Part shown: positions 1,504 through 26,909 of the stretch, in pieces
Position numbering within the stretch: the first letter of the stretch is position 1
How the letters are laid out: each line of letters opens with the position of its first letter
Source of the DNA: an uncultured Bacilli bacterium
Lineage (GTDB): Bacteria; Bacillota_I; Bacilli_A; RF39; UBA660
DNA length: 26,909 bases
Assembly (NCBI GenBank): GCA_947627635.1
Contig: CANQWT010000013.1
Span: 1-26,909 of the forward strand
Direction of reading: 5' to 3'
The notes under the pieces: generated by a model
Told to the model about the DNA's origin: nothing
The model's database searches: none
What the model saw: only the letters and a program-made list of their open reading frames with translations
Position numbers and translations under genes: made by a program

Positions 1504-2412
1504 TCATTCTTTTATAAAAACTTTTTCTTTTTTTTGTTGAGGTTTTGTATAACTTTCTTCAATTTGACAAATTTTTTTAAGATTTTCTCTAGCAGATTGA
1601 TGAAGAATATAAAAATCCTCTAACATTTCTTTATCTATTTTTCTTTTTGGTAAATTTTGGTATTCCATATCTTCTAAAGAGGGTAAGCCAAGTATCTTAC
1701 GAACTTTTTCATTTTGCTCCTCTTGGTCTTGAAGTACTAAATTTTCTCCACTTTGAACAGACTTTAACAGTTGATTAGAAACAAACAAATAATCTTTTTG
1801 GTTGGTAAAATCTTTAACCATCTTTTTTCCGTGGACTGTAATGACATTCACTGCATGCATTTTAATTGGATGAAGTTCATAAGGATAACAAAAATAAGTA
1901 GATAAATATCCTGTTTCTATTGGAAAGTTTTGGGAAAAATCATCAAAAAGTGTCGCAATATGACGGCATTCAGCTTTTCCACTAAATACTCTTTCTCCAT
2001 AAAGGCGAGGAATTTCATGAGAAACTTTACAACTTTCTACTTGAAAGGTTAAATCTTTAGAAAAAAGTCCTTGATATAAAGCATCTTGAAATAGATAAGC
2101 AACATCATATGAAGATGTAAAATCATATTGTTTCAAAAGCAAAGAGATAGAGTTCAAATAAGTTTGATAAAGTTGTTCCATTTCTAAAATATCTTTTTGC
2201 TTTCCTATAAATGTTTCGATATCATAATGCTTATCAATTTGCTTTTTTAAAGGAAGAAGACAAAAAGAAATAGGCAAAATAGAAATCAGAGACTGAGGAA
2301 AAGGAAACGAATATAAACTAGAAGTTAAAACTGCAAGAGAAGCTAAGTTTGCTCCTCTTTGAGCCCATTTTTGTTTTTGAATTTCCATATCAATACGATT
2401 TTTTTCTTTCAT
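1504..2412 (-). CDS. Membrane-anchored transglutaminase-like (papain-fold Cys-His-Asp) domain protein, paralog 1 of 3
   Basis: Hydrophobic N-terminal segments. Conserved GKAECRHIATLF matches the transglutaminase-core motif G-x-CRHFAxLF. Downstream HAVNVITVHGKKMVKDFTN matches the HAWxEV..GW..DPT His/Asp block. Confidence 0.5.
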   Translation of the reverse strand: MKEKNRIDMEIQKQKWAQRGANLASLAVLTSSLYSFPFPQSLISILPISFCLLPLKKQIDKHYDIETFIGKQKDILEMEQLYQTYLNSISLLLKQYDFTSSYDVAYLFQDALYQGLFSKDLTFQVESCKVSHEIPRLYGERVFSGKAECRHIATLFDDFSQNFPIETGYLSTYFCYPYELHPIKMHAVNVITVHGKKMVKDFTNQKDYLFVSNQLLKSVQSGENLVLQDQEEQNEKVRKILGLPSLEDMEYQNLPKRKIDKEMLEDFYILHQSARENLKKICQIEESYTKPQQKKEKVFIKE

Positions 2413-2427
2413 GATGCAACCTCCTTT

Positions 2428-3354
2428 TTATTTGATTATTTTTTTGGCTTTTCTAATGTCTGGCATGGTGTATTTTTCCTCAATTTGACAAATTCGTTCT
2501 AATTGACTTTGAGATTTTTGATTCAGTTGTTTCATATTCTTCATAACACTTAAAAACTGTTCTTCACGAAACTGTTGATTTCTTTCATTGCATGTTGTCA
2601 TATAGTCATCCATATTGAGTGATGGAAGAGCTAAAAATTTATCAATATCAGTTGCTTGATTTCCTTTGATAAAGAAGATACTACTGTCTTCAATTCCTTT
2701 TAGTTCTTTTGATGATGTGAACAAATATGTTTGATGATTGGTTATATCTCGCGCCATTTTTTTACCATTGACTTCTAGTAAACTGATGGCATGATTTGCT
2801 TGTTGCTTAGAAGTGTCTAGTTCCTCTCCTAAATATCCACCAAGCCATCCTGTTTTAAAAGGATAACTTTCTGTAAAGTTTAAAAACAAACTACTAATAT
2901 GGCGACAGCATCCTAATCCACTCATAACTCTACTTCCCTCTAATAGAAAATGATTGTGCTTAAATTGATGATTGTTATAGTGAAAAACTCCTTCTTTCGA
3001 AAAATAGCCATTCCATAAACTCATTTCAAAATATCCTGTGACATCTAATGGATGAGTAATAGAAAAAGCATCAAAAACCGCTTTTGCATCTTTTAAATAT
3101 GTACAGTAAAGTTCTAATAGCTCTTGCATATCTTTTTGTTTTAAAAGATAGGAAGTATCATCCATCTTTGTTCTAATCTGCTTTGTGAAGTAAAGATTAC
3201 TTCCTAATAGAAGTGGAACAGAAACTAAAAAAGGAAAACCTGTTAGATGAAGAAAAGGCATCAATATTGGAAGCCCCAAAGTAACCGTATCCAGTCCACT
3301 TTTAAGATAAAAAGACTTTTTACGATTTTCAAGAATATAATCTTTTTCTTTCAT
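2428..3354 (-). CDS. Membrane-anchored transglutaminase-like domain protein, paralog 2 of 3
   Basis: Same architecture as paralog 1: two N-terminal TM helices, SGLGCCRHISSLF Cys motif, HAISLLEVNGKKMARDITN His/Asp block. The C-terminal ERICQIEEKYTMP motif is shared by all three paralogs. Confidence 0.5.
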   Translation of the reverse strand: MKEKDYILENRKKSFYLKSGLDTVTLGLPILMPFLHLTGFPFLVSVPLLLGSNLYFTKQIRTKMDDTSYLLKQKDMQELLELYCTYLKDAKAVFDAFSITHPLDVTGYFEMSLWNGYFSKEGVFHYNNHQFKHNHFLLEGSRVMSGLGCCRHISSLFLNFTESYPFKTGWLGGYLGEELDTSKQQANHAISLLEVNGKKMARDITNHQTYLFTSSKELKGIEDSSIFFIKGNQATDIDKFLALPSLNMDDYMTTCNERNQQFREEQFLSVMKNMKQLNQKSQSQLERICQIEEKYTMPDIRKAKKIIK

Positions 3355-3370
3355 CCTTTCACTCCCTCTA

Positions 3371-4258
3371 TCAATACTTTTTCATGAATACCTTTTTCTC
3401 TTTCATTTGTGGTTCTGTATATTTTTCTTCAATTTCTGAAATTCGTTCTAGTTGTGGTCTAGATTGTTGTTGTAAAGCTCTTAATTCTTTAAAAAGAGAG
3501 GCTTTGTCTATCGAAGTAAGACTTTCTTTTTCTTCTTGATACTCCTCTATTTTCCAATGTGGTCCTTCTAAAATTCGAGCTTGTTCTAACGCTGAAATTG
3601 TCGTAAAACAGTCTACATAATAAACCATACTTTTTGCTTCATCCTCTAATCGTTTTGAACCTGTAAAGAAGTAGACATCACGATTGGTTAAATCTAGTCC
3701 TATACTTTTTCCTTTCCACTCAATAATATTGATGGCATGTCCTATACTTTTTTTAAAAGCCTTCTTCTTTGTTTGCCATGGAAAAGCAGAAAAACCATAA
3801 ACTTCAGGAGCAGTAAAAGAAAAGTTATCACTAAAATCATTAAAAAGTGCACTAACATGGCGACAAACTCCAGTACCACTCATAATTCTAGGGGCAAACA
3901 AAAGAAATAAGTTGTTATCATAAAAGCTATCTTGAAATTGAAACTGTCCACTTTTGGAAAAGATACCTTGGTAAATCGCATCTGAATAGACTTCTGCTAC
4001 GTCAAAAGGATGAGTAACTCCATTTTTTTGAAAGATAGATGCAACCTCACTTAAATATCCTTCATAAAGATAATAAAGCTCTCGAACATCATCTTGTCGG
4101 TATAAATACATTTGAAAATCACTTACATTTTCTAACTGTTCCATTACAGTTACTTGTAGGCGCTTACTAAATGGAATGAAATTTAAAATAGATTTTACCT
4201 TTTTGAGTTTTTCAATTTCTTTTTGTTGTTGATAACAGACTTCCTGATAAGCACTCAT
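3371..4258 (-). CDS. Transglutaminase-like domain protein, paralog 3 of 3 (N-terminus less hydrophobic)
   Basis: SGTGVCRHVSALFNDF and HAINIIEWKGKSIGLDLTN motifs and the C-terminal ERISEIEEKYTEP motif are present. It lacks the clear TM hairpin of the other two paralogs. Confidence 0.5.
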   Translation of the reverse strand: MSAYQEVCYQQQKEIEKLKKVKSILNFIPFSKRLQVTVMEQLENVSDFQMYLYRQDDVRELYYLYEGYLSEVASIFQKNGVTHPFDVAEVYSDAIYQGIFSKSGQFQFQDSFYDNNLFLLFAPRIMSGTGVCRHVSALFNDFSDNFSFTAPEVYGFSAFPWQTKKKAFKKSIGHAINIIEWKGKSIGLDLTNRDVYFFTGSKRLEDEAKSMVYYVDCFTTISALEQARILEGPHWKIEEYQEEKESLTSIDKASLFKELRALQQQSRPQLERISEIEEKYTEPQMKEKKVFMKKY

Positions 4259-8931: not shown

Positions 8932-9711
8932 TTATCTTTTTTTCATATAAGGCATCAAATAATCACCATCGTACTGATGTTTTTTCTGAGCAGTAGACAT
9001 TTTTTGTAAAACCATTGTACCTTCTTTAGAAATATGTTTAGGCTTCCATCCTCTTTTTAATTGGAATAAAATAGATGGATAATCATATCCTGTCATTGTT
9101 TCTAGGATTGTTAAGTTTAACATATAAGTATCAACACTTGGTGGAAGTATACCCTTTTTCATAAAGGGTCTTAATTCAGAAGTATTAAGGTCAATAGGAT
9201 AATTTTCAACTTGCATGTTATCCAAATCACAAAAACTAGTTTTTCTATTTCTTGGGTCAATTAAGATATTGGCATTATTGATATCACCATAAACAATTCC
9301 TTGTTCATGAAACTCATTCAATTGTGCTTTAACTTGATTCATAAAGAAAATAAAAAGTCGTGCATCCATATCTAATTGGTATAATGCATAAGCTCTTGGA
9401 TTTCTTGTCATATCATATCCTACAAATTGTCCGTTACAACTAATCGTTTTTAAGATTTTAACATCATTTCGAAAAGCTTCGTTATCGTAAAGTCTTATGA
9501 TTTTGATACATTTATTTTCTCTCATTTGTTCTTGTTCTTCACTTGTTTTGTCTTTGCATCCCATATCTTTTTTGAAGATTTTACGAGCAATAGGACGTCC
9601 ATTTGTATCCTTTAAGAATAAAACATCAGCTTCACTACCACCAGTTTTACTTTTCTTCCTCATTCTCTCTAATTCTTGATAACTAATTTCAATATTTCGT
9701 AATGTTTGCAT
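8932..9711 (-). CDS. Protein-kinase-like fold protein (CotS/aminoglycoside-phosphotransferase-like catalytic loop)
   Basis: GIVYGDINNANILID resembles the catalytic loop HGDLHxxNIL of the kinase-like fold. A downstream FCDLDN sits at the DFG-equivalent position. Confidence 0.45.
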   Translation of the reverse strand: MQTLRNIEISYQELERMRKKSKTGGSEADVLFLKDTNGRPIARKIFKKDMGCKDKTSEEQEQMRENKCIKIIRLYDNEAFRNDVKILKTISCNGQFVGYDMTRNPRAYALYQLDMDARLFIFFMNQVKAQLNEFHEQGIVYGDINNANILIDPRNRKTSFCDLDNMQVENYPIDLNTSELRPFMKKGILPPSVDTYMLNLTILETMTGYDYPSILFQLKRGWKPKHISKEGTMVLQKMSTAQKKHQYDGDYLMPYMKKR

Positions 9712-9815: not shown

Positions 9816-10922
9816 CTATTTAAATCCACATGTTGGATTAGAAATTCCATTGATTAGTTTTAAAACTTCTCCTACTAAAAATGGTAGTAGGAATAAAACG
9901 ACTACTGCGATTAAGCGAACAACAAGACGTGACTGAGCTTTTTTCATTGCCTCCTCATCAGAAGTTGCGATGGCTTTAATGAATTCTAACATACTTAAGA
10001 TAATGACTAGAACTGGTCCAATAATCTTAATATAGTTAAGAGCTGTTTGTATGAGCCATCCAAAGGATTCTTTTGTAAAGTTTCCATTTCCATCGGTTTT
10101 TCCAAAAATACCTTCACAGCCAATTCCTGAATTTAGTCCATCTAAATCAACATTGGAGTTTTCAGTATCTCTATTTTCTGGTAGAGTACGATCTGTATCT
10201 GCATCTGTCCCACTTTCTACAATTTTAATCCTATAATGAGCAAGATTAGAGGTATAATCTGAAACTTTATCAGCATAAATATAAGCAGGACAAGTAAATG
10301 CATTATCTTTATAAAATAAAGAAGTTGGATTATTTTCCATATCACAAACTGTTGAAACAGTAGAACTAACATCACAATCAAAAGAAGCTGTTTGATTATC
10401 TTTCTTAGTTACTTCTATAGTAGTATCTTGAGTAGGCTCACTTATATATTTACAGGAAGTGTCAGTAGAACTTTTTAGTTTATACTGTTGTCTTGAGTTT
10501 GCATTACTAGAAGTTGATTGATCTGTATCACCTTTTGTTCCATTTACATTTTCAATACAATTACCTTTTCCCTTATCTTTTTCACATTCATCTTTAGATT
10601 GATATACAATATAATCAGCATTCCAAGCTGTTACAAATACACTAATAGTTGGACAATTACCACTACTTAAACTAATACCATTTTTATCATAAAAAGTAAC
10701 TTTCTTAGTAAGAGTTCCCTGATTTGCAAAACCTGAACCCTTAGTTAAAACATTTTCATAGTTATCTGTTTCTAATACAATATTATTTTTTTCACTACCA
10801 GTACTATAAGTACAAACTGTTTTAGCGTAAACTTTAGTATAACTAGCAAAAAGTAGGACAAAAAAGAATAAAACATAAAACAGGTATTTCATTTGATTTT
10901 GTTTCTTTTTCATGATTATCAC
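9816..10922 (-). CDS. Secreted Cys-rich protein with a C-terminal two-helix membrane module
   Basis: Lys-rich N-terminus followed by a hydrophobic signal (YLFYVLFFFVLLFASYTKVYA). The ectodomain carries many Cys residues. The C-terminal IKIIGPVLVIILS..IKAIATSDEE..KKA..VVLFLLPFLV hairpin is homologous to the N-terminal modules of the ORFs at 17226 and 18258. Confidence 0.6.
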   Translation of the reverse strand: MIIMKKKQNQMKYLFYVLFFFVLLFASYTKVYAKTVCTYSTGSEKNNIVLETDNYENVLTKGSGFANQGTLTKKVTFYDKNGISLSSGNCPTISVFVTAWNADYIVYQSKDECEKDKGKGNCIENVNGTKGDTDQSTSSNANSRQQYKLKSSTDTSCKYISEPTQDTTIEVTKKDNQTASFDCDVSSTVSTVCDMENNPTSLFYKDNAFTCPAYIYADKVSDYTSNLAHYRIKIVESGTDADTDRTLPENRDTENSNVDLDGLNSGIGCEGIFGKTDGNGNFTKESFGWLIQTALNYIKIIGPVLVIILSMLEFIKAIATSDEEAMKKAQSRLVVRLIAVVVLFLLPFLVGEVLKLINGISNPTCGFK

Positions 10923-11123: not shown

Positions 11124-13073
11124 TTAGTTAGCATTTGGGGTGAGGACGATGCGAAAAGTAAGCCATGCAGTCATTCGACCATTATCACCACTGAATGCGA
11201 AAACTCCTGCATTTTGACCATTACTGGGGTAACCACCTCGAATCATCCATGGACTATCCGTATTCACCATCCATGTGAGATCACTATACCACTCTGCTCC
11301 TTCTCCTAAGGAATGTCCTTTACAGGAGTTTCCGTTACATGCTGTTTCTGTTAATATTGATGTGTATTCATCAAAGTACTTAGTAGCTGGCCATTCTCTT
11401 GCATTTTCTGTAAATTCGCTTTCGTCAGTTAATTTTCCTGAATAGCCCGAATTTCTTTCTTGTGCATTTCCACTCCGTTTTTCTAGCACTCCCATGGTGT
11501 ATTCCCATGCTCCTCCATTGATATCATAGATTCCCGTAATGTTTCCTGTACTTGAAGCTCCTGCTCCAGTATAACCCTTGCCTTCTCCTCTATCTACTAG
11601 GTCATCATACGCTGCTCCTTCTTCAGTGGAGCTTAAGGCTGATCCTTGTCCACTTGAACGTCCTGTCTTATAACCACTATAATTATTCATGAATACTTCT
11701 TTATTAGCTCCTGTATATAAAGAATTACCATATTTTCCATACTTGCTTTGAGTTAAGTATGATATCAAAGCCCACTCTGTGTTCTTTGAGGCATGACTAT
11801 CATATGTTTCTTGATTAAATCCGTAAATGTTTCCTACTTTCGTTATTCCCATAGATACTATTTCTAATGTTGACACTCGAATATTTCTCCATGAATATAC
11901 ATTTGGCTTAATTTGAACAGTTAAATTTTCTAGATCACAACCATTATTTACATCATTATTAGTGGTAGAACAGTTTTCAATGTTACTACTTTCAAACTTT
12001 CCTATCCATACTCCTGATAAGTTTTCATCACCAAAAGTAAATCCTGGTGGTGTAAACCATCCTTTGACACTTTGTCCTTTTTTGTACTGTGCTGTTCCAT
12101 CATCTTTTGTAGAGGTAGAGATAAATTTCACATCGATTTCTCCTGGATTTGCTGCACTTTCTCCACCCTTTCCATAATAATTTGTTCCATCTTCTGATTT
12201 AATTGTATAACTATATCTTGGTATCCATACAAACATCTGCAAGATATCATCCATATTGATTTTTGCTCCAGCTTTGGCATTCTTGTATGTTTCTCTTGTT
12301 TCATTTGTTACTGTTACTGCATTTGCCCAATTTTGTTTATCATAATCATACCACTTGTTATTCACATCTGCTTTAATCCAACTATATCCATTATAAACAA
12401 CAGGTATCATGTTATCTGAAAGCACTGGAGGATTAGGCTCTTGTTGGTTTTCATATCCTGCAAGCTGTTGTGTTGCATCTACTTTTAACTTTCCAAAGAA
12501 TACTTTTCCTTGAGCATCATTTCCTGCATCATAATTGAGCCAAACACGAAGTTCATAATCGATTTTATTTGCTTCACCTTTTAAAATTGTTCCAGCATCA
12601 ATAATACGATTATGAGGAAGAGTTTCTACTTCTTCTTTTCCATTTGCAATGAGTTGATAACGAATATCTTTTTCATCTAAATAACTACAATCAGGACATT
12701 CTTGTTGCTTTTCTTCATTGTCAATTAAAGAAAGCTGATAATCCAAATTCATCATACTTTCATTATCCAAAGTAAAGGTATAAGAAACACCTTTCTTACC
12801 CTCTTCATCAACAATAGGAACTGCAGGAACCTCAGAACCTAAATCAATTCCATCATTTGTCTCATCTAAAATAAGATTTAATTTCTTCGCATTAAGTCCA
12901 ACATTTTTTGTACCTTTTACTGATGTTCTTAACCAAGCATAACTAAGACTAAAAAAGAGAAGTAAGCAAATTATTAAAAGGATAATTCCACTAATAATCA
13001 TGGTCTTATTTTTTCTTTTTTTATTTCTTATATCCTCCATATATAAACACCCTATCTTTCTTGTAATAATCAT
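11124..13073 (-). CDS. Membrane-anchored surface protein with C-terminal FGE-sulfatase/C-type-lectin-like (DUF323-like) domain
   Basis: N-terminal TM (MIISGIILLIICLLLFF), then roughly 250 aa of beta-rich sequence. The C-terminal part carries FGE-fold hallmarks: NTEWALISYL ~ PTEAEWEYAAR, GGAWEYT ~ GNVWEWT, PWMIRGG ~ RVLRGGSW, and a terminal FRIVL ~ GFR. It is paralogous to the ORF at 25560. The true start could be the internal Met at 13040. Confidence 0.75.
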   Translation of the reverse strand: MIITRKIGCLYMEDIRNKKRKNKTMIISGIILLIICLLLFFSLSYAWLRTSVKGTKNVGLNAKKLNLILDETNDGIDLGSEVPAVPIVDEEGKKGVSYTFTLDNESMMNLDYQLSLIDNEEKQQECPDCSYLDEKDIRYQLIANGKEEVETLPHNRIIDAGTILKGEANKIDYELRVWLNYDAGNDAQGKVFFGKLKVDATQQLAGYENQQEPNPPVLSDNMIPVVYNGYSWIKADVNNKWYDYDKQNWANAVTVTNETRETYKNAKAGAKINMDDILQMFVWIPRYSYTIKSEDGTNYYGKGGESAANPGEIDVKFISTSTKDDGTAQYKKGQSVKGWFTPPGFTFGDENLSGVWIGKFESSNIENCSTTNNDVNNGCDLENLTVQIKPNVYSWRNIRVSTLEIVSMGITKVGNIYGFNQETYDSHASKNTEWALISYLTQSKYGKYGNSLYTGANKEVFMNNYSGYKTGRSSGQGSALSSTEEGAAYDDLVDRGEGKGYTGAGASSTGNITGIYDINGGAWEYTMGVLEKRSGNAQERNSGYSGKLTDESEFTENAREWPATKYFDEYTSILTETACNGNSCKGHSLGEGAEWYSDLTWMVNTDSPWMIRGGYPSNGQNAGVFAFSGDNGRMTAWLTFRIVLTPNAN

Positions 13074-15814: not shown

Positions 15815-17119
15815 TTAAATAACTTCTATATCAGAAGAATCCTCTTCGATTATAGACTTTTTAGTAAAATAGTCCCTGTGTAAATAGGCTTTGGCAAGTG
15901 GACTATTCGGATACATAAAATACATATCATACACTTGCTTTACATCCATATTTTCGTGACTACATCTTATTCTAGCACGTCTATCAAGCTTCGACAAGTT
16001 ATTCATTCTTTTTTTTGTCTGTTCACTTTGTAAATTGATTGTCCCAAGAGGCTGTCCTCCTCCACCAACACAACCATTTTCACAATTCATGACTTCAACA
16101 AAATCATAAAGTACTTCACCATTCTCTAAAGCTTCTAAGATAGGTCCTACTTCTTTCATTCCCCAAACGGAGGCGACCTTTAAAGTTTTTCTATAAGTTT
16201 TAACCTCAAGTACTCGCTTACTTTCTGTTTCTTCAAGGGTCTTAATTTTAAAAGGCTCACCCATTAAGAAAGAAAGTGTTCGAAGAACAGCTTCACTTAC
16301 TCCACCCTTTCTTCCAAAAATAGTCGCAGCTCCACTTCCTTCACTTAATAAAGCATCAAAATTTCTTTCTTTTTCTTCTTTTAAATTCACATTTTCTTCC
16401 TTTAATAAGAGAAGTAGTTCACTCGTTGTGATACAAATATCCATTCCTGGAACATCAATAATTTCTTGTTTTTTCGCTGTACAAGGAGCAACAACTACAT
16501 GAATAACATCTTCTTTTTTCAAATTTTCTTTTTCTAAAAAATAACTATTCAAAATAGCCCCTTGCATTCCAATTGGGCTTTTGGCTGTCGATAAATAACA
16601 TGTATACTGTGGATAAAATTTTGTCACATAAGAAACCCAAGCAGGACAACAAGAAGTAAAAAGTGGTCGATGTTCTCCATCCATAATAATTCCTAAAAAC
16701 TCTGTTGCTTCTTCCATGACTGTTAAATCTGCCCCAAAAGTAACATCAAAAACATAATCAAAGCCAATTCGTTTTAAAGCTCCTATTAACTGAGGCAAAT
16801 TGTTTTCATCCTCATCATAACCAAAAGCTTCTCTTAATGAAACACGAACTGCAGGTGCAAGTGAAATGGTCACAACTTTATTCGTGTCGTGCAAATAATC
16901 AAGGACTTTTTTATATTGATACTTAGGAGTAAGTGCCCCAACAGGACAAGATAAAATACATTGTCCACAACCAAGACAAGTCTTTTCATAAATATCTCTA
17001 TCTATCTTTTCTTTTTCAATACAAGTCTTTTTACAAATTCCACATTCAATACATCTTTCAATAATTCGGTTGATGCATTTATTTTCCTTGTCAATATAGA
17101 CTGCTTTCTTTTGCCCCAT
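15815..17119 (-). CDS. [FeFe]-hydrogenase catalytic subunit (HydA-like)
   Basis: N-terminal ferredoxin-like Cys clusters (CIECGIC...[13 protein letters not shown]). H-cluster motifs are present: L1 TSCCPAW, L2 [10 protein letters not shown]3 [14 protein letters not shown]. Confidence 0.85.
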
Positions 17120-17174
17120 ATTTATTCACCTTACTTTACTCTATTATAACTTTTTTTCTTGATTTAGAGAAGTG

Positions 17175-17211
17175 ATTTCTTGTTTTTTAACTACTAAATT
17201 TATGTTATAAT
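17175..17211 (+). promoter_or_regulatory. Putative promoter with extended -10 (TGtTATAAT) for the plus-strand membrane-enzyme cluster
   Basis: TGTTATAAT sits at 17203-17211, with a TTG-containing -35-like sequence about 20 nt upstream. The region is divergent from the hydrogenase gene. Confidence 0.35.
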
Positions 17212-17225
17212 GAAAAAAATGAGAA

Positions 17226-18242
17226 ATGAGTGATATTATGTTCAATATTTTAGAAACAACAGCCTGTACTGATTATGTCTTAGGCTATTACTTATCGATT
17301 GTCAAAACAATTCTTACCGTTTTACAAATTGCTGCCCCTATTGTGTTTATAATTTCTCTAGTTATTTCGTTTATCAAAATTACTGCAACAGGAGATGAAA
17401 ACAAAAAGATTGCAAAAGGAATTGTCAAGAAAATTATCGCAGTAATCATATTTTTCTTACTACCTTGGATGGTCAACTTAGTACTTGGACTGATTGAAGT
17501 TGAAAATGTAGATACTGGAGCAAGATATACCCTTGGAAGTTGTTGGGAAAATGCAAGTGAATTAAGAAAAGAAGTAGACAATACTCATAATGATGGTGTC
17601 AATAAAGGTAATCCAACTGATTTAAAACCGGATAATTCATCTTTAGAAAATATCGAAGCAGATGATGATACTGACACCGATACCGATACGAGTAGTAATA
17701 GTGGAAATAGTAGTAGCAGTAGTGGTAATAGTAGTTCTGGTACTACTTCTAATCAAACCGAAACACCTACAAAATTGATTTTTATAGGTGACTCTAGAAC
17801 AGTAGGAATGCATAATGCTGTTGGTGGAAAGGATACTTGGAGTTGTAAATCAGGAGAAGGACTTGCTTGGATGAAATCAACTGGAGTTCCACAAATTGAA
17901 GATAAAATTGACAATAAAACTGGTATTATTATTCTAATGGGTGTCAATGATTTATATAATGCTGATAAATATGTAACATATATCAATGAACAAGCTAAAA
18001 AATGGGTTGCTAAGGGTGCTAAAGTTTACTTTAACTCTGTCATGCCTTGTAAAGGAAGCTATGCAAATAGAAATGTTAGTATTCAAGATTTCAACAAAAA
18101 GTTAAAAGTCAAACTCAAAAATGTAAAATACATTGATAGTTATTCCTATATGACTAAACAAGGATTTGATTCACCTGATGGACTTCATTATAATGCTGCA
18201 ACCTATAAAAAAGTATATAAATATATTAAAAATCGTTTATAA
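17226..18242 (+). CDS. Membrane-anchored SGNH/GDSL hydrolase with N-terminal two-helix module and D/T/S-rich linker
   Basis: Module LQIAAPIVFIISLVISFIKITATGDENKKIA...IIFFLLPWMV is followed by a low-complexity linker, DDDTDTDTDTSSNSGNSSSSSGNSSSGTT. SGNH blocks follow: I FIGDSRT, III GVNDL, V DGLHYN. The alternative start is the second Met, at 17238. Confidence 0.8.
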   Translation: MSDIMFNILETTACTDYVLGYYLSIVKTILTVLQIAAPIVFIISLVISFIKITATGDENKKIAKGIVKKIIAVIIFFLLPWMVNLVLGLIEVENVDTGARYTLGSCWENASELRKEVDNTHNDGVNKGNPTDLKPDNSSLENIEADDDTDTDTDTSSNSGNSSSSSGNSSSGTTSNQTETPTKLIFIGDSRTVGMHNAVGGKDTWSCKSGEGLAWMKSTGVPQIEDKIDNKTGIIILMGVNDLYNADKYVTYINEQAKKWVAKGAKVYFNSVMPCKGSYANRNVSIQDFNKKLKVKLKNVKYIDSYSYMTKQGFDSPDGLHYNAATYKKVYKYIKNRL

Positions 18243-18257
18243 AAAGGAAGTGATTAC

Positions 18258-19346
18258 ATGCTTAGTCTTTTAGATTTAACTGAATGTAAAGATTTTGTCT
18301 TAGGCTATTTTCTAGCAACAATTAAATCCATTCTTGACTTACTTCAAATTGTTGCTCCTATTGTTTTAATTATTTCTTTGATTATCTCTTTTTCTAAACT
18401 TGTAATTAACCCTGATAATGATAAGAAAGAAATTCATGGAATGATGATTCGAATTGTTGGAATTTTCTTCTTTTTCTTTCTTCCTTGGGTAGTAGAACTT
18501 GTCTTAAATGTCTTCGTCATTAACAGTAAAGATGACCAATCACTTTACTTATTAGGAAGCTGTTATAAATATTCTAAAGAAATAAGAGAAGTTTTAGATA
18601 GTTCTCCTAGTAAAGGTGTTGGAAATAATATGACACCAGTTCAGTTAAAGACAACCATTGGTGAAATTACTGTTGAGAAAGCCATAGAATCAATGGAATC
18701 AGATTCAAGTAAAGGTATGGGTGCTGTTAAAAAAGTCACTATCAAATACAATCAAAAAGATCCTGAAGGACGCTGTGGTAAAGGAAAAAATGACTATTGT
18801 TCTGCCATTGCAACTGTCAAATATGAAAAAGGAACTGTCAAGTACTATATGGGATATCAATATAATTCTGGACTTCTTGATGGATCTTGTAGAGCACATG
18901 CCCTAACCTCAGCGATTAACGCTATTAAAAATACAAAGATGTCTACCCTAGATTTACAAAATTACATGTATAAGCTAACTCCTAATAGTGGTGTCTTAGT
19001 CGGAAATAAAATTGATAAAGCGATTAGTCATTATGGAATAAAAGCAACTGTTTTCCATAGCGAGCTAACACAAGAAAAAGCAGCAAACATTATTAAGGAA
19101 GCTGTTAAAAATGGACAACCTGTTATGGTCTTTGTTCAACATTCAAAATGTCCTGACCTTGCAGGAACTCATCATGCTTATCTGATTTTAGATATCGATG
19201 ATGATGGCCATGTTGTTATGATAGATAGTTGTAACTATCCTAGAAATGCAAGTTACAAAAAAAGAACACCAAGTGAACTTGCAAAATGTTTAAGTAAAGA
19301 TGATATCGCTGATAGTTATTATCGTTTGATTTTATTCGAATTTTAA
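18258..19346 (+). CDS. Membrane-anchored papain-superfamily cysteine peptidase (C39-like domain) with the same N-terminal module
   Basis: The module LQIVAPIVLIISLIISFSKLV..D.DKKEI...FFFFFLPWVV is homologous to that of the ORF at 17226. The C-terminal domain has LDGSCRAHALTSAINAI (Cys motif) and GTHHAYLILDIDDDGHVVMIDS (His block). An AAAGGAAG RBS is present. Confidence 0.7.
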   Translation: MLSLLDLTECKDFVLGYFLATIKSILDLLQIVAPIVLIISLIISFSKLVINPDNDKKEIHGMMIRIVGIFFFFFLPWVVELVLNVFVINSKDDQSLYLLGSCYKYSKEIREVLDSSPSKGVGNNMTPVQLKTTIGEITVEKAIESMESDSSKGMGAVKKVTIKYNQKDPEGRCGKGKNDYCSAIATVKYEKGTVKYYMGYQYNSGLLDGSCRAHALTSAINAIKNTKMSTLDLQNYMYKLTPNSGVLVGNKIDKAISHYGIKATVFHSELTQEKAANIIKEAVKNGQPVMVFVQHSKCPDLAGTHHAYLILDIDDDGHVVMIDSCNYPRNASYKKRTPSELAKCLSKDDIADSYYRLILFEF

Positions 19347-19361
19347 AAGGGTGTGTGTTTT

Positions 19362-19970
19362 ATGAATAAAAAATACTTTATTATTGTAGGAGCAATTATT
19401 GGAGTACTCTTGATTATTTCTTTTATTAACCATAGGCGAGTTCAAAATCAAGATGGAAATTATACCAAAGAAACTTATGAAGATGCTCCTCGTGTCAATA
19501 ACACCAGTGATTTGACAAAGTTATCCAATTCAATTATCTATTTTCAAAATAGTGAAAATTACTTATTACAAATTGCAGTAGTTCTTGCCTCTTCTATTGA
19601 TAGGAGTAAAAGTAAAATTGACTTTCAAACCTTACCTAGTGATGAGATTTTCAAATATACCAATTATCTTTTAAGTGATGGTGAAAAAGTTTGTTACTCC
19701 AGAAAATTTTTATTAGAAGAAGCCAATAATCTATTCCATCGACGAATTTCTACAATTCCTACTAATGATGAAATTTATCAGATTTATGATACAAGTACAG
19801 TCTGTTTCGGTTCAACCTTTCTAAATGATATTCCCCTTCAAAATCAACAAATCAATACTCTACCTAACAGCGATATAGAAATTATTCTTTCTGAAGAGCA
19901 AACTAGTTTAAAAGTACTTTTCTCACAAAACTATGGAAACTATTATATTAAAGAAGTGACTATTTATTAA
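19362..19970 (+). CDS. Single-pass membrane protein of unknown function
   Basis: N-terminal TM (YFIIVGAIIGVLLIISFI). An AAAGGGTG RBS precedes the ATG at 19362. The track ORF starts 3 codons earlier, at 19353. It sits immediately downstream of the peptidase gene. Confidence 0.55.
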   Translation: MNKKYFIIVGAIIGVLLIISFINHRRVQNQDGNYTKETYEDAPRVNNTSDLTKLSNSIIYFQNSENYLLQIAVVLASSIDRSKSKIDFQTLPSDEIFKYTNYLLSDGEKVCYSRKFLLEEANNLFHRRISTIPTNDEIYQIYDTSTVCFGSTFLNDIPLQNQQINTLPNSDIEIILSEEQTSLKVLFSQNYGNYYIKEVTIY

Positions 19971-20005
19971 GCACTTCTTTTTCTTTTTGGCATAAACTAC
20001 AACAG

Positions 20006-20239
20006 GTGATTTTCGTGAAAAAAAGAAAAAGACATTCCCATTCCTTTTGCTGTCGTTGTAACATGTGTAAACAAAAACGTTTGTTAAGTCCTATCTATTT
20101 ATCAATTATCTTTTTCTTAATTGCCATTACCATGTATCAAGCTTTTCTACTCATCTTTCTAACCACTAAAATTCATGCAATTTTACTCTTTATCGAGTTA
20201 TTTTTCTTCTTGTTTCTGACATCGCTTATCCTCTTCTAA
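20006..20239 (+). CDS. Small hydrophobic protein (possible two-TM peptide); start uncertain
   Basis: A basic, Cys-containing N-terminus is followed by two hydrophobic stretches. It overlaps the 3' end of the convergent ysxE-like gene. The call is weak. Confidence 0.3.
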   Translation: MIFVKKRKRHSHSFCCRCNMCKQKRLLSPIYLSIIFFLIAITMYQAFLLIFLTTKIHAILLFIELFFFLFLTSLILF

Positions 20240-21073
20240 TAAAAAGAGAAAACACTTCTTAAGTTTATTCAGATTTCTTGATAAAAAAACTGTACCTTGA
20301 TAAGTTGATAGAACTTCTAATTTTGGAGGAAGTGCTAGTAAAAAGGAAAATAAAAGTTGTTCTTCTTTGGTAAAAGGATAAGTCTTTTGATAAATTGAAT
20401 AAAGAGATGAAATATCCAGTTCTAGACAATGTGTCTGAATAAAATAAACCAAATCAGTAACAGGACTTCCATAATCCATTTGACTTAAGCTAAGAAGACA
20501 TGGCATTTTTCCATCTAAAAAATGAGAAAGTTCAAAACGATGATGAACCAAAACTTTACGAATATGCTTTTTTAAAGTAACTGCTTGATACCACTTTTCT
20601 AGTTTTTCTTTGGCATAAGATAAAGAGGAAAAAATCAATGAGAGATTTCTTTGAAAAAGATAGATGGAAGAAGATGGATAAACTTCTTTCAAAAAGCAAT
20701 TTTCTAAGTTTTCATAGTAACAAAACAAATCTGTAAGTTCTTTACTTTTAGCTTCATAAAATTCTTTTACTTCATCTAAAATAATCTCTTGATAAAATGT
20801 AGTCTTATTTTGTAAAAGCGATAATACATGAATCATGTCTATCGCTTTTTCGTCGATTTGATAATGTTTTTCAGGAAGATATAAAAAAATTTCTTCTTGT
20901 TCTAATCGTTCGATAGGTTTTAAGAAATGATGAAACCCTCTATCTTCTAACATTTCATAAATATCTTCATTCTTAAATTTTCTTTTTGGCTTTATAAAAT
21001 AGGCATTATCATCTGTTACTATAATACGATTATTTTTGACTAACGTTATTTTCTTAATGTGCCTACTATTCAT
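20198..21073 (-). CDS. CotS/YsxE-family spore-coat kinase-like protein
   Basis: VLVHHRFELSHFLDG...MDYGSPVTDLVYF resembles the CotS-family HGDLHHGNIL...ID...D pattern. It sits directly downstream of a spoVID-like gene, as ysxE does in Bacillus. Confidence 0.5.
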   Translation of the reverse strand: MNSRHIKKITLVKNNRIIVTDDNAYFIKPKRKFKNEDIYEMLEDRGFHHFLKPIERLEQEEIFLYLPEKHYQIDEKAIDMIHVLSLLQNKTTFYQEIILDEVKEFYEAKSKELTDLFCYYENLENCFLKEVYPSSSIYLFQRNLSLIFSSLSYAKEKLEKWYQAVTLKKHIRKVLVHHRFELSHFLDGKMPCLLSLSQMDYGSPVTDLVYFIQTHCLELDISSLYSIYQKTYPFTKEEQLLFSFLLALPPKLEVLSTYQGTVFLSRNLNKLKKCFLFLLEEDKRCQKQEEK

Positions 21074-25559: not shown

Positions 25560-26909
25560 TTATTGAGGTGTAAGAACCTGACGGAAAGAGCCATTTCCAT
25601 CTACATTACCATTCCATCCGTAGAATGTGAAAACTCCTGCGTATGTTTCATCCCCAGCTCGACCTCCACGATAGAACCATGGGCGTGTTGTACTCAATGT
25701 CCAAGGAGCATCACCATACCACCCTGCGACTTCGCCTAAGGCATGTCCCTTGCATGGATTTCCGTTACAGGCAGTTGCTATTGATATTGACGTGTAAACA
25801 TCATAGTATTTTTCATCGGGCCAGCCTCGTTCACTATCATAATTGCTTTCATCTGCGAGGAGTCCTGGATATCCTGAGTTCGCATTTGCTGTATTACCAC
25901 TTCGTTTCTCTAATACACCCATTGTATATTCCCAAGTAGCTCCATTTATATCATAAATTCCTGTGATGTTTCCTGTTGAACTTGCTCCGGCTCCTGCGTA
26001 GCCCTGACCATTTCCTCGGTCTACCATCACATCATATTGATTTGCACATGTTGTTGAACTACTTGCTGTTCCTTGTCCACTTGAACATCCTGTCATATAC
26101 CAATTGTAGTTATTTATAAATACTTGTTTATTTTCTCCGGTATATAATGGGTTACCATACTTTCCATATTTACTTTGTGTAAGGTAACTGATTAGTGCCC
26201 ACTCACTATTTTTTGAAGCATGACTATCATAGGTACTTTGATCAAAGCCATATATATTTTCTTCTTTTGTTATTCCCATAGACACTAACTCTAACGTTGA
26301 TATTCGAATTCCTCTCCATGAAGTAATATTAGGTTTGATTGCTACTAAGTTATCTGTATCCACATCTCCTGGACTTGTTCCATCAATTGATCCTGTCTCA
26401 AACTTACCTACCCATATCCCTGATAGGTTCTTCTCTCCAAACTTAAATCCTGGTGGAGTGTACCATCCACTTGGTGTATTTGAATTTGTATATTGGGCAC
26501 TTCCTTCATCTGTAGTAGAACTATTGATAAACTTCACGTCTATCTCTCCTGGTAAGGCTTGACTTGGTTCATCACTTCTTCCTTCCTCTTTCTTTCCATA
26601 GTAATGTGTTCCATCTTCACTCTTTATGGTGTAACTGTATCTCGGTATCCATACCCACATTTGGAGAATATCATCCATCTTTACTTCTTCTCCTGCTTCG
26701 GCATTCTTGTATGTCTCTCTACTTTCATTTGTTACTGTTACTGCATTCGCCCATTCTTGTTTATCGTAGTTATAATAGTCACTACTCTTCTTTACCCATG
26801 TCTTTCCATTGTATACGACTGGTATCATATTGTCACTTAGAACTGGAGGGTTTGCTCCACTCTTATCTTTTTCTATATAAGGTAATAAGTACTTACTATT
26901 ACTTGGAAA
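25560..26909 (-). CDS. FGE-sulfatase/C-type-lectin-like domain surface protein, paralog 2 (5'-partial; runs off window end)
   Basis: Manual translation upstream of the track start continues without a stop, ...FPSNSKYLLPYIEKDKSGANPPVLSDNMIPVVYNG, matching NPPVLSDNMIPVVYNG in paralog 1. The C-terminus is PWFYRGGRAGDETYAGVFTFYGWNGNVDGNGSFRQVLTPQ. Confidence 0.8.
   Translation of the reverse strand, partial: FPSNSKYLLPYIEKDKSGANPPVLSDNMIPVVYNGKTWVKKSSDYYNYDKQEWANAVTVTNESRETYKNAEAGEEVKMDDILQMWVWIPRYSYTIKSEDGTHYYGKKEEGRSDEPSQALPGEIDVKFINSSTTDEGSAQYTNSNTPSGWYTPPGFKFGEKNLSGIWVGKFETGSIDGTSPGDVDTDNLVAIKPNITSWRGIRISTLELVSMGITKEENIYGFDQSTYDSHASKNSEWALISYLTQSKYGKYGNPLYTGENKQVFINNYNWYMTGCSSGQGTASSSTTCANQYDVMVDRGNGQGYAGAGASSTGNITGIYDINGATWEYTMGVLEKRSGNTANANSGYPGLLADESNYDSERGWPDEKYYDVYTSISIATACNGNPCKGHALGEVAGWYGDAPWTLSTTRPWFYRGGRAGDETYAGVFTFYGWNGNVDGNGSFRQVLTPQ

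Follow-up and report, generated by a model that had tools for sequence, protein, structure and literature searches.

A probable VirB2-like pilin hairpin fused to putative wall enzymes and to a Cys-rich ectodomain in an uncultured Bacilli bacterium

VirB2-like pilins and the repeated module of the window

The VirB2-like proteins of Gram-positive type IV secretion systems are 50–150 amino acids (aa) long with two transmembrane helices and a short charged cytoplasmic loop, are encoded near virB6, and assemble on a VirB6 pentamer with both termini on the exterior of the pilus, and no VirB5-like tip protein has been found in these systems (bioRxiv 10.64898/2025.12.18.695078). The Pfam family T4SS_pilin (PF18895) is among the profiles that have been used to find VirB2 arrays in Patescibacteria (PMC12102498). 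Here we describe a repeated two-helix module in a stretch of 26,909 nucleotides, called the window below, from an uncultured Bacilli bacterium (RF39; UBA660; assembly GCA_947627635.1, contig CANQWT010000013.1, positions 1–26,909). The module constitutes the N-terminus of the products of two adjacent open reading frames (ORFs) on the + strand, ORF 17226 (17226–18242, 338 aa) and ORF 18258 (18258–19346, 362 aa), and the C-terminus of the product of a third, ORF 9816 (9816–10922, - strand, 368 aa). It is very probably a VirB2-like domain of the T4SS_pilin family, and the reading that we prefer, with a probability of roughly 60%, is that it is a pilin-derived hairpin for anchoring or assembly which tethers wall enzymes, ORF 9816 being a paralogue of a candidate minor or tip pilin.

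The module comprises about 100 aa with two predicted transmembrane helices, and by the alignments the repeat is real and far beyond chance. Modules 1 and 2, of ORFs 17226 and 18258 respectively, are 44% identical over 115 aa (E 1e-31), and module 1 is 41% identical to residues 290–357 of ORF 9816 over 68 aa (E 1e-12), both by BLASTP with compositional adjustment, and a hidden Markov model (HMM) of the family finds ORF 9816 at E 4.8e-34, ORF 17226 at 5.7e-30 and ORF 18258 at 1.8e-26. The first-pass annotation of this DNA had reported the same module at the same ends of the three proteins, and the lack of significant alignment between copies that it had named as a reason to give it up is found by direct BLASTP for module 2 and ORF 9816 alone. 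This one pair could be taken to mean that the similarity is compositional and the copies are unrelated signal-anchor or stop-transfer segments, and a profile search of the PDB in addition draws spurious matches to transmembrane helices 5 and 6 (TM5-TM6) of G protein-coupled receptors (GPCRs; E ~2e-3), indicating that such hairpins attract noise. The statistics refute an artefact nevertheless, as the two BLASTP values were reached despite compositional adjustment, the conserved positions include non-hydrophobic residues (two Cys, an Asp, a Lys-Lys and two Pro), and the database matches at E≤1e-10 number 385, with a consistent gene neighbourhood.

These matches come from a profile made of the three window copies only and searched against 1.84 billion representative proteins, which gave 6,832 matches at E≤1e-3. 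A word-indexed homology search with module 1 alone gave no matches, where the exhaustive profile search succeeded, and no match to the module turned up by tblastn in collections of annotated plasmids and phages. All counts of architectures, conserved residues and domains in the following refer to the best 150 of the 6,832 relatives.

By homology the module is placed as a diverged branch of PF18895, a family that is named yet little studied. In individual scans PF18895 is matched by 76 of the 150 relatives (best E 9e-10) and PF04956 (TrbC/VirB2) by one of them (E 1.4e-5), and 16 matches already bear a precomputed PF18895 annotation. Membership comes through close relatives that pass the gathering threshold of 26.6 bits. 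One is L054 (353 aa), which aligns with ORF 18258 over its full length at 43% identity (E 7e-87) and scores above the cutoffs of both T4SS_pilin (31.8 bits) and Peptidase_C39_2 (27.9 bits), as does P0048 with 30.4 and 34.8 bits, and a YkuD fusion in L040 passes with 27.7 bits. In NCBIfam the hairpin has weak matches to membrane proteins of mycoplasma integrative and conjugative elements (ICEs) and of pLS20 conjugation, including the 'Mbov_0395 family pilin-like' entry. The module had previously been regarded as not assignable to a named family, which no longer holds given PF18895 and these conjugation links, and a place in a well-characterised family was to refute the claim of an uncharacterised module; it is refuted only in part, as a named family has been found but PF18895 is barely characterised.

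Like the PF18895 pilins, of which the Patescibacteria arrays are an example, the module forms a hairpin of two helices and a short charged loop, half of the 150 relatives match the family, and in the relatives the module genes form arrays of 2–4 paralogues next to VirB6-, VirB3- and VirB4-like genes. The window copies differ in that they are fused to large extracytoplasmic domains, lie far from secretion genes and score just under the cutoff, and their conserved Cys pair falls outside the 71-position Pfam model. With 338, 362 and 368 aa the window proteins are not small stand-alone proteins of about 50–150 aa, although stand-alone forms of 100–150 aa are found among the relatives. PrgF_B2 of Enterococcus faecalis pCF10, the first and only Gram-positive VirB2-like protein to be tested experimentally, also has two transmembrane helices, a gene just upstream of a VirB6-like gene, and an acidic/basic loop, SNDDPR, that is like the NPDDKK or SDEE..KK of the module family, but it is a stand-alone protein of 75 aa without flanking cysteines or fused domains.

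TrbC/VirB2 (PF04956) of Gram-negative bacteria has the same topology and is matched by the one relative mentioned above, whereas the module-first forms have no long cleaved leader, and the module is without a cyclase context, belongs to a monoderm host and occurs in fusion architectures. VirB2 and TrbC undergo head-to-tail cyclisation, in which their termini are joined, and by analogy the conserved Cys pair of the module could do the same job via a disulfide. The hairpin matches to Mbov_0395 pilin-like, Mbov_0396, MMCAP2_0566 and pLS20_p028 are weak (E 1.4e-4 to 0.05). These proteins also have an N-terminal hairpin followed by a larger region, and the clusters of the relatives encode a VirB4 of Mbov_0397 type, but the scores are far under the curated cutoffs, and these are transfer components of ICEs or a plasmid and not enzyme fusions. 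The VirB1-like wall hydrolases PrgK, TcpG and CwlT of Gram-positive conjugation systems resemble the enzyme fusions in carrying NlpC/P60-, CHAP- or amidase-type domains on an N-terminal membrane anchor; their anchors are ordinary single spans and their genes are located inside the transfer operon, as opposed to the pilin-family hairpin and the housekeeping loci of the window. Within one limited collection of literature no description of pilin-enzyme or ectodomain-pilin fusions was found. PF18895 is a known family, and what appears to be new is that its hairpin is fused to other domains, has a conserved pair of Cys and is dispersed into core loci.

Anatomy and predicted topology of the hairpin

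In ORF 17226 the hairpin constitutes aa 5–111 (17238..17558, +), as judged by the family HMM, a sub-threshold PF18895 match of 15.6 bits, hydropathy, charge and the alignments. A short acidic N-tail with Cys14 is followed by helix 1 at about aa 22–50 (with Pro38), a K-rich loop TGDENKKIAKG, helix 2 at about aa 66–92 (with F77-x-x-P80) and then LGSC(106)W. The true start of this ORF is more likely the ATG at 17238 (MFNILE...), because the family alignments share an M-F-x-I-L start. ORF 18258 is preceded by a strong ribosome-binding site (AAGGAAGTGA) and has its hairpin in aa 1–107 (18258..18578, +), recognized by the family HMM, by BLASTP to module 1 and by the homologue L054 above the PF18895 cutoff, with Cys10, Pro34, F73-x-x-P76 and LGSC(102)Y. 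In ORF 9816 the hairpin is C-terminal (aa 266–368, 9819..10127, -), with a PF18895 score of 23.9 bits, the family HMM and an AlphaFold2 (AF2) model built with an alignment as evidence, and reads GIGC(269)E, helix 1 at about aa 289–318 (with Pro305), the loop TSDEEAMKKAQSR, helix 2 at about aa 330–358 (with F-L-L-P) and finally NPTC(365)GFK. By hydropathy all copies have two hydrophobic helices of about 30 residues each with a short polar loop in between, and AF2 folds the module of ORF 9816 (105 aa, 47-sequence alignment) as a hairpin with pLDDT 80.9 and helices at 24–57 and 60–93.

The consensus given in the first-pass annotation, with the trailing LGSC, is correct. Few residues are as well conserved as the Cys of LGSC and the Cys that precedes helix 1, which are present in 144 and 143 of the 150 relatives respectively (about 95%). 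Helix 1 contains the Pro in 145/150 and ends with a conserved D-F-x-K, in the F-x-x-P of helix 2 the F is found in 148/150 and the P in 150/150, and the loop has D-(E/D) and then K-K, in 128, 130 and 115 of the 150. In just over half of these proteins (78/150) the module is C-terminal and preceded by a signal peptide and a large region rich in Cys; in 31 it is N-terminal and followed by another domain, and 41 are stand-alone module proteins of at most 160 aa.

In the module-first proteins the N-tail of 17–21 residues has 0–1 K/R and 3 D/E, and the loop has 4–6 K/R, a charge distribution which by the positive-inside rule puts the loop in the cytoplasm and both ends outside. We infer the same orientation, with both termini outside and the loop inside, for all three proteins, and the hairpin predicted after the ectodomain of ORF 9816 leaves an 11-residue tail outside. 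The suggestion that the module works in both topologies is therefore not upheld, as hydropathy and charge predict one hairpin orientation throughout. Two transmembrane helices, a short charged cytoplasmic loop and outside termini, as in the VirB2-like proteins, are thus predicted for the module by hydropathy, charge and the AF2 hairpin. Since both ends of the hairpin should be extracytoplasmic, cargo may be attached at either of them. The Cys pairs of the window are C14/C106 (ORF 17226), C10/C102 (ORF 18258) and C269/C365 (ORF 9816), and because both residues of a pair are expected on the same outer side of the membrane, a disulfide between these Cys, one on either flank of the two helices, probably clamps the ends of the hairpin.

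Secretion clusters in related genomes and the ectodomain protein

One genome per GTDB species was scanned with an alignment of the C-terminal-type module, which gave 30 loci, all from uncultured gut Bacilli or 'Tenericutes' metagenome-assembled genomes (MAGs), for example Clostridium sp. CAG:451, Candidatus Onthousia, and MAGs from rabbit, Hadza and goat. Gene clustering of the 30 loci shows a conserved single-strand cluster in the relatives, which starts with a protein of about 800 aa, DUF5411, an RcpC/CpaB-like protein, a T2SSE-family ATPase and four unknown proteins, and continues with one or two stand-alone module genes (about 110–125 aa), one or two C-terminal-module genes, a TrbL_4/VirB6-like protein of about 690 aa and a protein of about 104 aa. 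After these come a split VirB4, consisting of an N-terminal piece (match to the Mbov_0397 ICE ATPase, 9e-15) and an AAA_10 ATPase, then either a SpoIID-like hydrolase or M23 and NlpC/P60 hydrolases, all without the hairpin, and last a VirD4 coupling protein. A VirB6-like gene is found near the module genes in 28/30 loci, VirB4 in 27/30 and VirD4 in 22/30, and the small and large module genes are paired in all 24 assessable loci. The same arrangement is present in 7 metagenome loci, with 2–4 small pilin genes. The module genes occupy exactly the place where virB2 is expected; a position beside virB6 and virB4 is thus found for the C-terminal-type and stand-alone homologues, and is not found in the window.

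The cluster has a size of about 20 kb on one strand and is seen in L002–L030, L045, L046, L053, L058 and L059 (e.g. L005:3-20258). It is composed of a Tad-like block (DUF5411, RcpC/CpaB-like protein, T2SSE ATPase and unknown membrane proteins) and a mycoplasma-ICE-like type IV secretion set of a pilin array, VirB6-like protein, split VirB4, wall hydrolases and VirD4. No relaxase was seen in these clusters within 10-kb flanks. In several loci the VirB6/TrbL-like protein itself starts with a hairpin that matches the module HMM, namely aa 36–119 of the 926-aa ORF in L045, aa 30–120 of the 683-aa ORF in L059 and aa 37–109 of L015:10274-12349, which echoes the weak NCBIfam matches to Mbov_0396, MMCAP2_0566 and pLS20_p028.

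ORF 9816 starts with a signal peptide recognized from sequence and hydropathy (10824..10922, -; K-rich n-region, hydrophobic core, VYA|KT), which is followed by an ectodomain of about 230 aa with 8 Cys (10128..10823, -) that has no Pfam or NCBIfam match. In a single-sequence AF2 model of the whole protein (pLDDT 42) the ectodomain is not interpretable. As it has a signal peptide and is anchored by its C-terminal hairpin, the protein is not freely secreted, contrary to what had been assumed before. Its module is 75–86% identical to those of L001–L003, of which L002 and L003 are in full clusters, and ORF 9816, itself an orphan, is a paralogue of the type that the clusters encode between the small pilins and the VirB6-like gene. 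The most likely identity of the cluster-encoded type is that of a minor or tip pilin, or else of a surface protein associated with the pilus.

This position, found in 24/24 assessable loci, is also an argument for a more far-reaching alternative, namely that the fusions are true pilus subunits that polymerise with the small pilins on the VirB6-like platform and display the ectodomain and the enzymes on the pilus or at its tip, as an adhesin and wall-drilling enzymes of a Gram-positive type IV secretion pilus. The termini of VirB2-like proteins face the pilus exterior, so that fusion at either end is geometrically possible, the loop and the intramembrane Pro and Phe are conserved in the enzyme fusions beyond the needs of a plain anchor, and a VirB5-like tip protein is not known in Gram-positive systems. 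We consider it unlikely all the same, since in all examined cases the enzyme fusions are located outside the secretion clusters, which encode hairpin-free hydrolases of their own (SpoIID-like, M23, NlpC/P60), and the window is without secretion machinery. For the enzyme fusions incorporation into a pilus is thus allowed by geometry but unsupported, and improbable. More doubtful still is the full form of the idea, an armed pilus of a small major pilin and fusion subunits in which the Cys-rich ectodomain is the missing VirB5-like tip or adhesin, the others are wall enzymes, and the window genes are dispersed members.

Enzyme fusions, the window and the meaning of the family

In ORF 17226 the hairpin is followed by a low-complexity linker rich in Asp, Thr, Ser and Asn, as read from the sequence (17559..17771, +), and by an SGNH/GDSL hydrolase domain (17772..18239, +) that scores 28.3 bits against Pfam Lipase_GDSL (cutoff 23.6) and has the motifs GDS/GDSR at aa 188, GVND at aa 239 and DGLHY at aa 318 intact, in agreement with the SGNH hydrolase of the first-pass annotation. 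It is a probable peptidoglycan esterase. ORF 18258 ends with a putative papain-like peptidase domain of the Peptidase_C39_2 type (18750..19343, +), with Cys211 (GSCRAH) and the His in GTHHA as candidate catalytic residues. The C39-like cargo proposed earlier is weak in this protein itself (19.1 bits, cutoff 24) and gains its support from the homologues L054 and P0048, the former at 27.9 bits. The other domains in the 150 relatives are NlpC/P60 (11), GDSL (4), CHAP (2), Amidase_3 (2), Peptidase_C39_2 and Amidase_5. P0014 consists of a hairpin, Amidase_3 and an SGNH domain homologous to that of ORF 17226 (E 4e-16), P0130 of a signal peptide, Amidase_3 and a C-terminal hairpin, and there are four fusions in L040, one with a YkuD L,D-transpeptidase, and an alpha/beta esterase fusion in L036. 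The cargo is overwhelmingly peptidoglycan-active. A reading of the proteins as holins or signal-arrest-release endolysins was dropped, as the hairpin is homologous to the pilins of secretion clusters and the cargos include the non-lytic YkuD and esterases.

L032 is syntenic with the window, with Lon, rubrerythrin and S16 being 86, 88 and 92% identical respectively, and has a single SGNH fusion (49% identical) at the same place, followed by a small membrane ORF of the 77–89 aa type (70% identical). The shared order is rubrerythrin, SGNH fusion, small membrane ORF, a 291-aa coat-region gene without a family match, a SpoVID-like gene, Lon and CotE. Compared with L032, two genes have been gained in the window between the SGNH fusion and the small ORF, those of the C39-like fusion and of a 205-aa membrane protein. 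A [FeFe] hydrogenase gene (15815–17119, -) between rubrerythrin and the SGNH fusion is absent in the otherwise syntenic L032, and with the extra C39-like and 205-aa genes this difference marks the intergenic spot as variable. The NlpC/P60 fusions are found between mltG/yceG with a methyltransferase gene and U32 peptidase genes (L034, L039, L043, L047, L049), often duplicated and alternating with membrane-anchored proteins of about 240–260 aa.

From these loci one could argue that the hairpin is merely a membrane anchor of pilin descent, and that the SGNH and C39-like proteins are housekeeping or sporulation enzymes of the wall or coat, functionally unconnected with secretion. The position of the SGNH fusion from rubrerythrin to the coat genes, Lon and CotE is conserved with L032, NlpC/P60 fusions adjoin mltG in five loci, and the YkuD and amidase cargos suggest ordinary wall metabolism. 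The coat genes are on the opposite strand, so their vicinity does not imply co-regulation, and this vicinity is also the weak positional support that the earlier idea of sorting to a spore or septum has. A simple anchor would need neither invariant Pro, Phe and Cys nor a conserved loop across thousands of proteins, and the hairpin is constant while the cargos are swapped, so that the first-pass annotation was right to see more in the module than a generic signal anchor. We hold a plain anchor to be clearly less probable than the preferred reading. The strong conservation of the loop and the intramembrane residues, even in housekeeping enzyme fusions, argues for a function of the hairpin beyond anchoring, which might be docking to the VirB6-like protein.

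The preferred reading would work as follows. The module would be a divergent VirB2-like pilin domain that stems from type IV secretion systems in uncultured gut Bacilli, and would insert as a hairpin with both ends outside and the conserved acidic-then-basic loop (D-E/D...K-K) in the cytoplasm, clamped by a disulfide of its two Cys. ORFs 17226 and 18258 would bear an SGNH esterase and a papain-like C39-type peptidase on the C-terminal outside end, and in ORF 9816 the signal peptide would export the Cys-rich ectodomain on the N-terminal outside end. The hairpins of the enzyme fusions would then keep the wall-modifying enzymes on the outside of the membrane, and may also dock onto or assemble with a VirB6-like platform encoded elsewhere in the genome.

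Several results weigh against this reading. Each window protein scores under the PF18895 gathering threshold (ORF 9816 23.9 bits, E 4.6e-5; ORF 17226 15.6 bits), and ORF 18258 has no PF18895 match in a Pfam scan. The family profile has no similarity to PrgF (hhalign probability 0.3%), and the PDB profile search gave the GPCR noise and no pilin. Foldseek with the hairpin model gave no PDB match at E≤1e-3, a result that is uninformative for so simple a fold. The topology and the disulfide are predictions, and the substrate and the link to a pilus are inferred as well. The 26.9-kb window contains no secretion-system genes according to blastp clustering, tblastn with the cluster proteins and Pfam scans of nearly all window ORFs, and the enzyme fusions are in housekeeping loci in every case examined, which leaves a pilus role for them without genomic support. 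The guess of a pilus-like location in the first-pass annotation was in the right direction.

As a rule the enzyme fusions come with a companion, a membrane protein with a single span that has 205 aa in the window (19353..19970, +, probable start ATG 19362; from the ORF list, hydropathy and start context) and about 240–260 aa elsewhere (L034:8862-9644, L035:298-1017, L039:5619-6344). The 205-aa protein has no Pfam or NCBIfam family match and no detectable similarity to the companions in the other loci; it is likely co-transcribed with the fusion genes, and such companions could be regulators or inhibitors of the fusion enzymes. The small ORF at 20006–20239 (+) is of the 77–89 aa type, with a Cys-rich N-terminus (C-x-C-x2-C) and hydrophobic helices, and is probably a real gene because it is 70% conserved (L032:4070-4339, L033:3196-3421) and lies immediately 3' of the SGNH fusion in the syntenic relative. 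A promoter and terminator scan of 17000–20400 gave nothing better than shuffled sequence.

The DNA of the window is ordinary spore-former chromosome, in which the recognizable genes encode Obg, L21-Prp-L27, an SPFH protein, EF-P, trigger factor, a kinase-like protein, a metallo-beta-lactamase-fold protein, a Fic protein, rubrerythrin, [FeFe] hydrogenase, a SpoVID-like LysM protein, Lon, a KhpA-like protein, S16 and CotE. A protein-kinase-fold protein of 259 aa (8932–9711, -; Pkinase 35.5 bits) is encoded immediately downstream of ORF 9816 on the same strand. ORFs 11124–13073 (-) and 25560–26909 (-) are paralogues with 65% identity and an N-terminal membrane segment, for which no Pfam or NCBIfam family was found; the first (649 aa) is located directly upstream of ORF 9816 and the second continues past the window end. 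Between obg and the L21-Prp-L27 operon there is a tandem trio of paralogues (1504–4258, -; 302, 308 and 295 aa) with a shared G-x-G-x-C-R-H motif and no family match.

Gram-positive VirB2-like pilins were recognized only in 2025, and the present family presents the pilin hairpin as a portable domain that takes cargo on either of its outside ends. In the secretion clusters a large ectodomain-pilin fusion is encoded exactly where a minor pilin is expected, and in the core loci of poorly known, uncultured gut Bacilli the hairpin has many times been taken up as a tether of enzymes active on peptidoglycan. The family thereby yields concrete candidates for tip or accessory subunits of the pilus, offers a model for membrane-proximal control of wall hydrolases, and gives an annotation to several thousand 'hypothetical proteins'.

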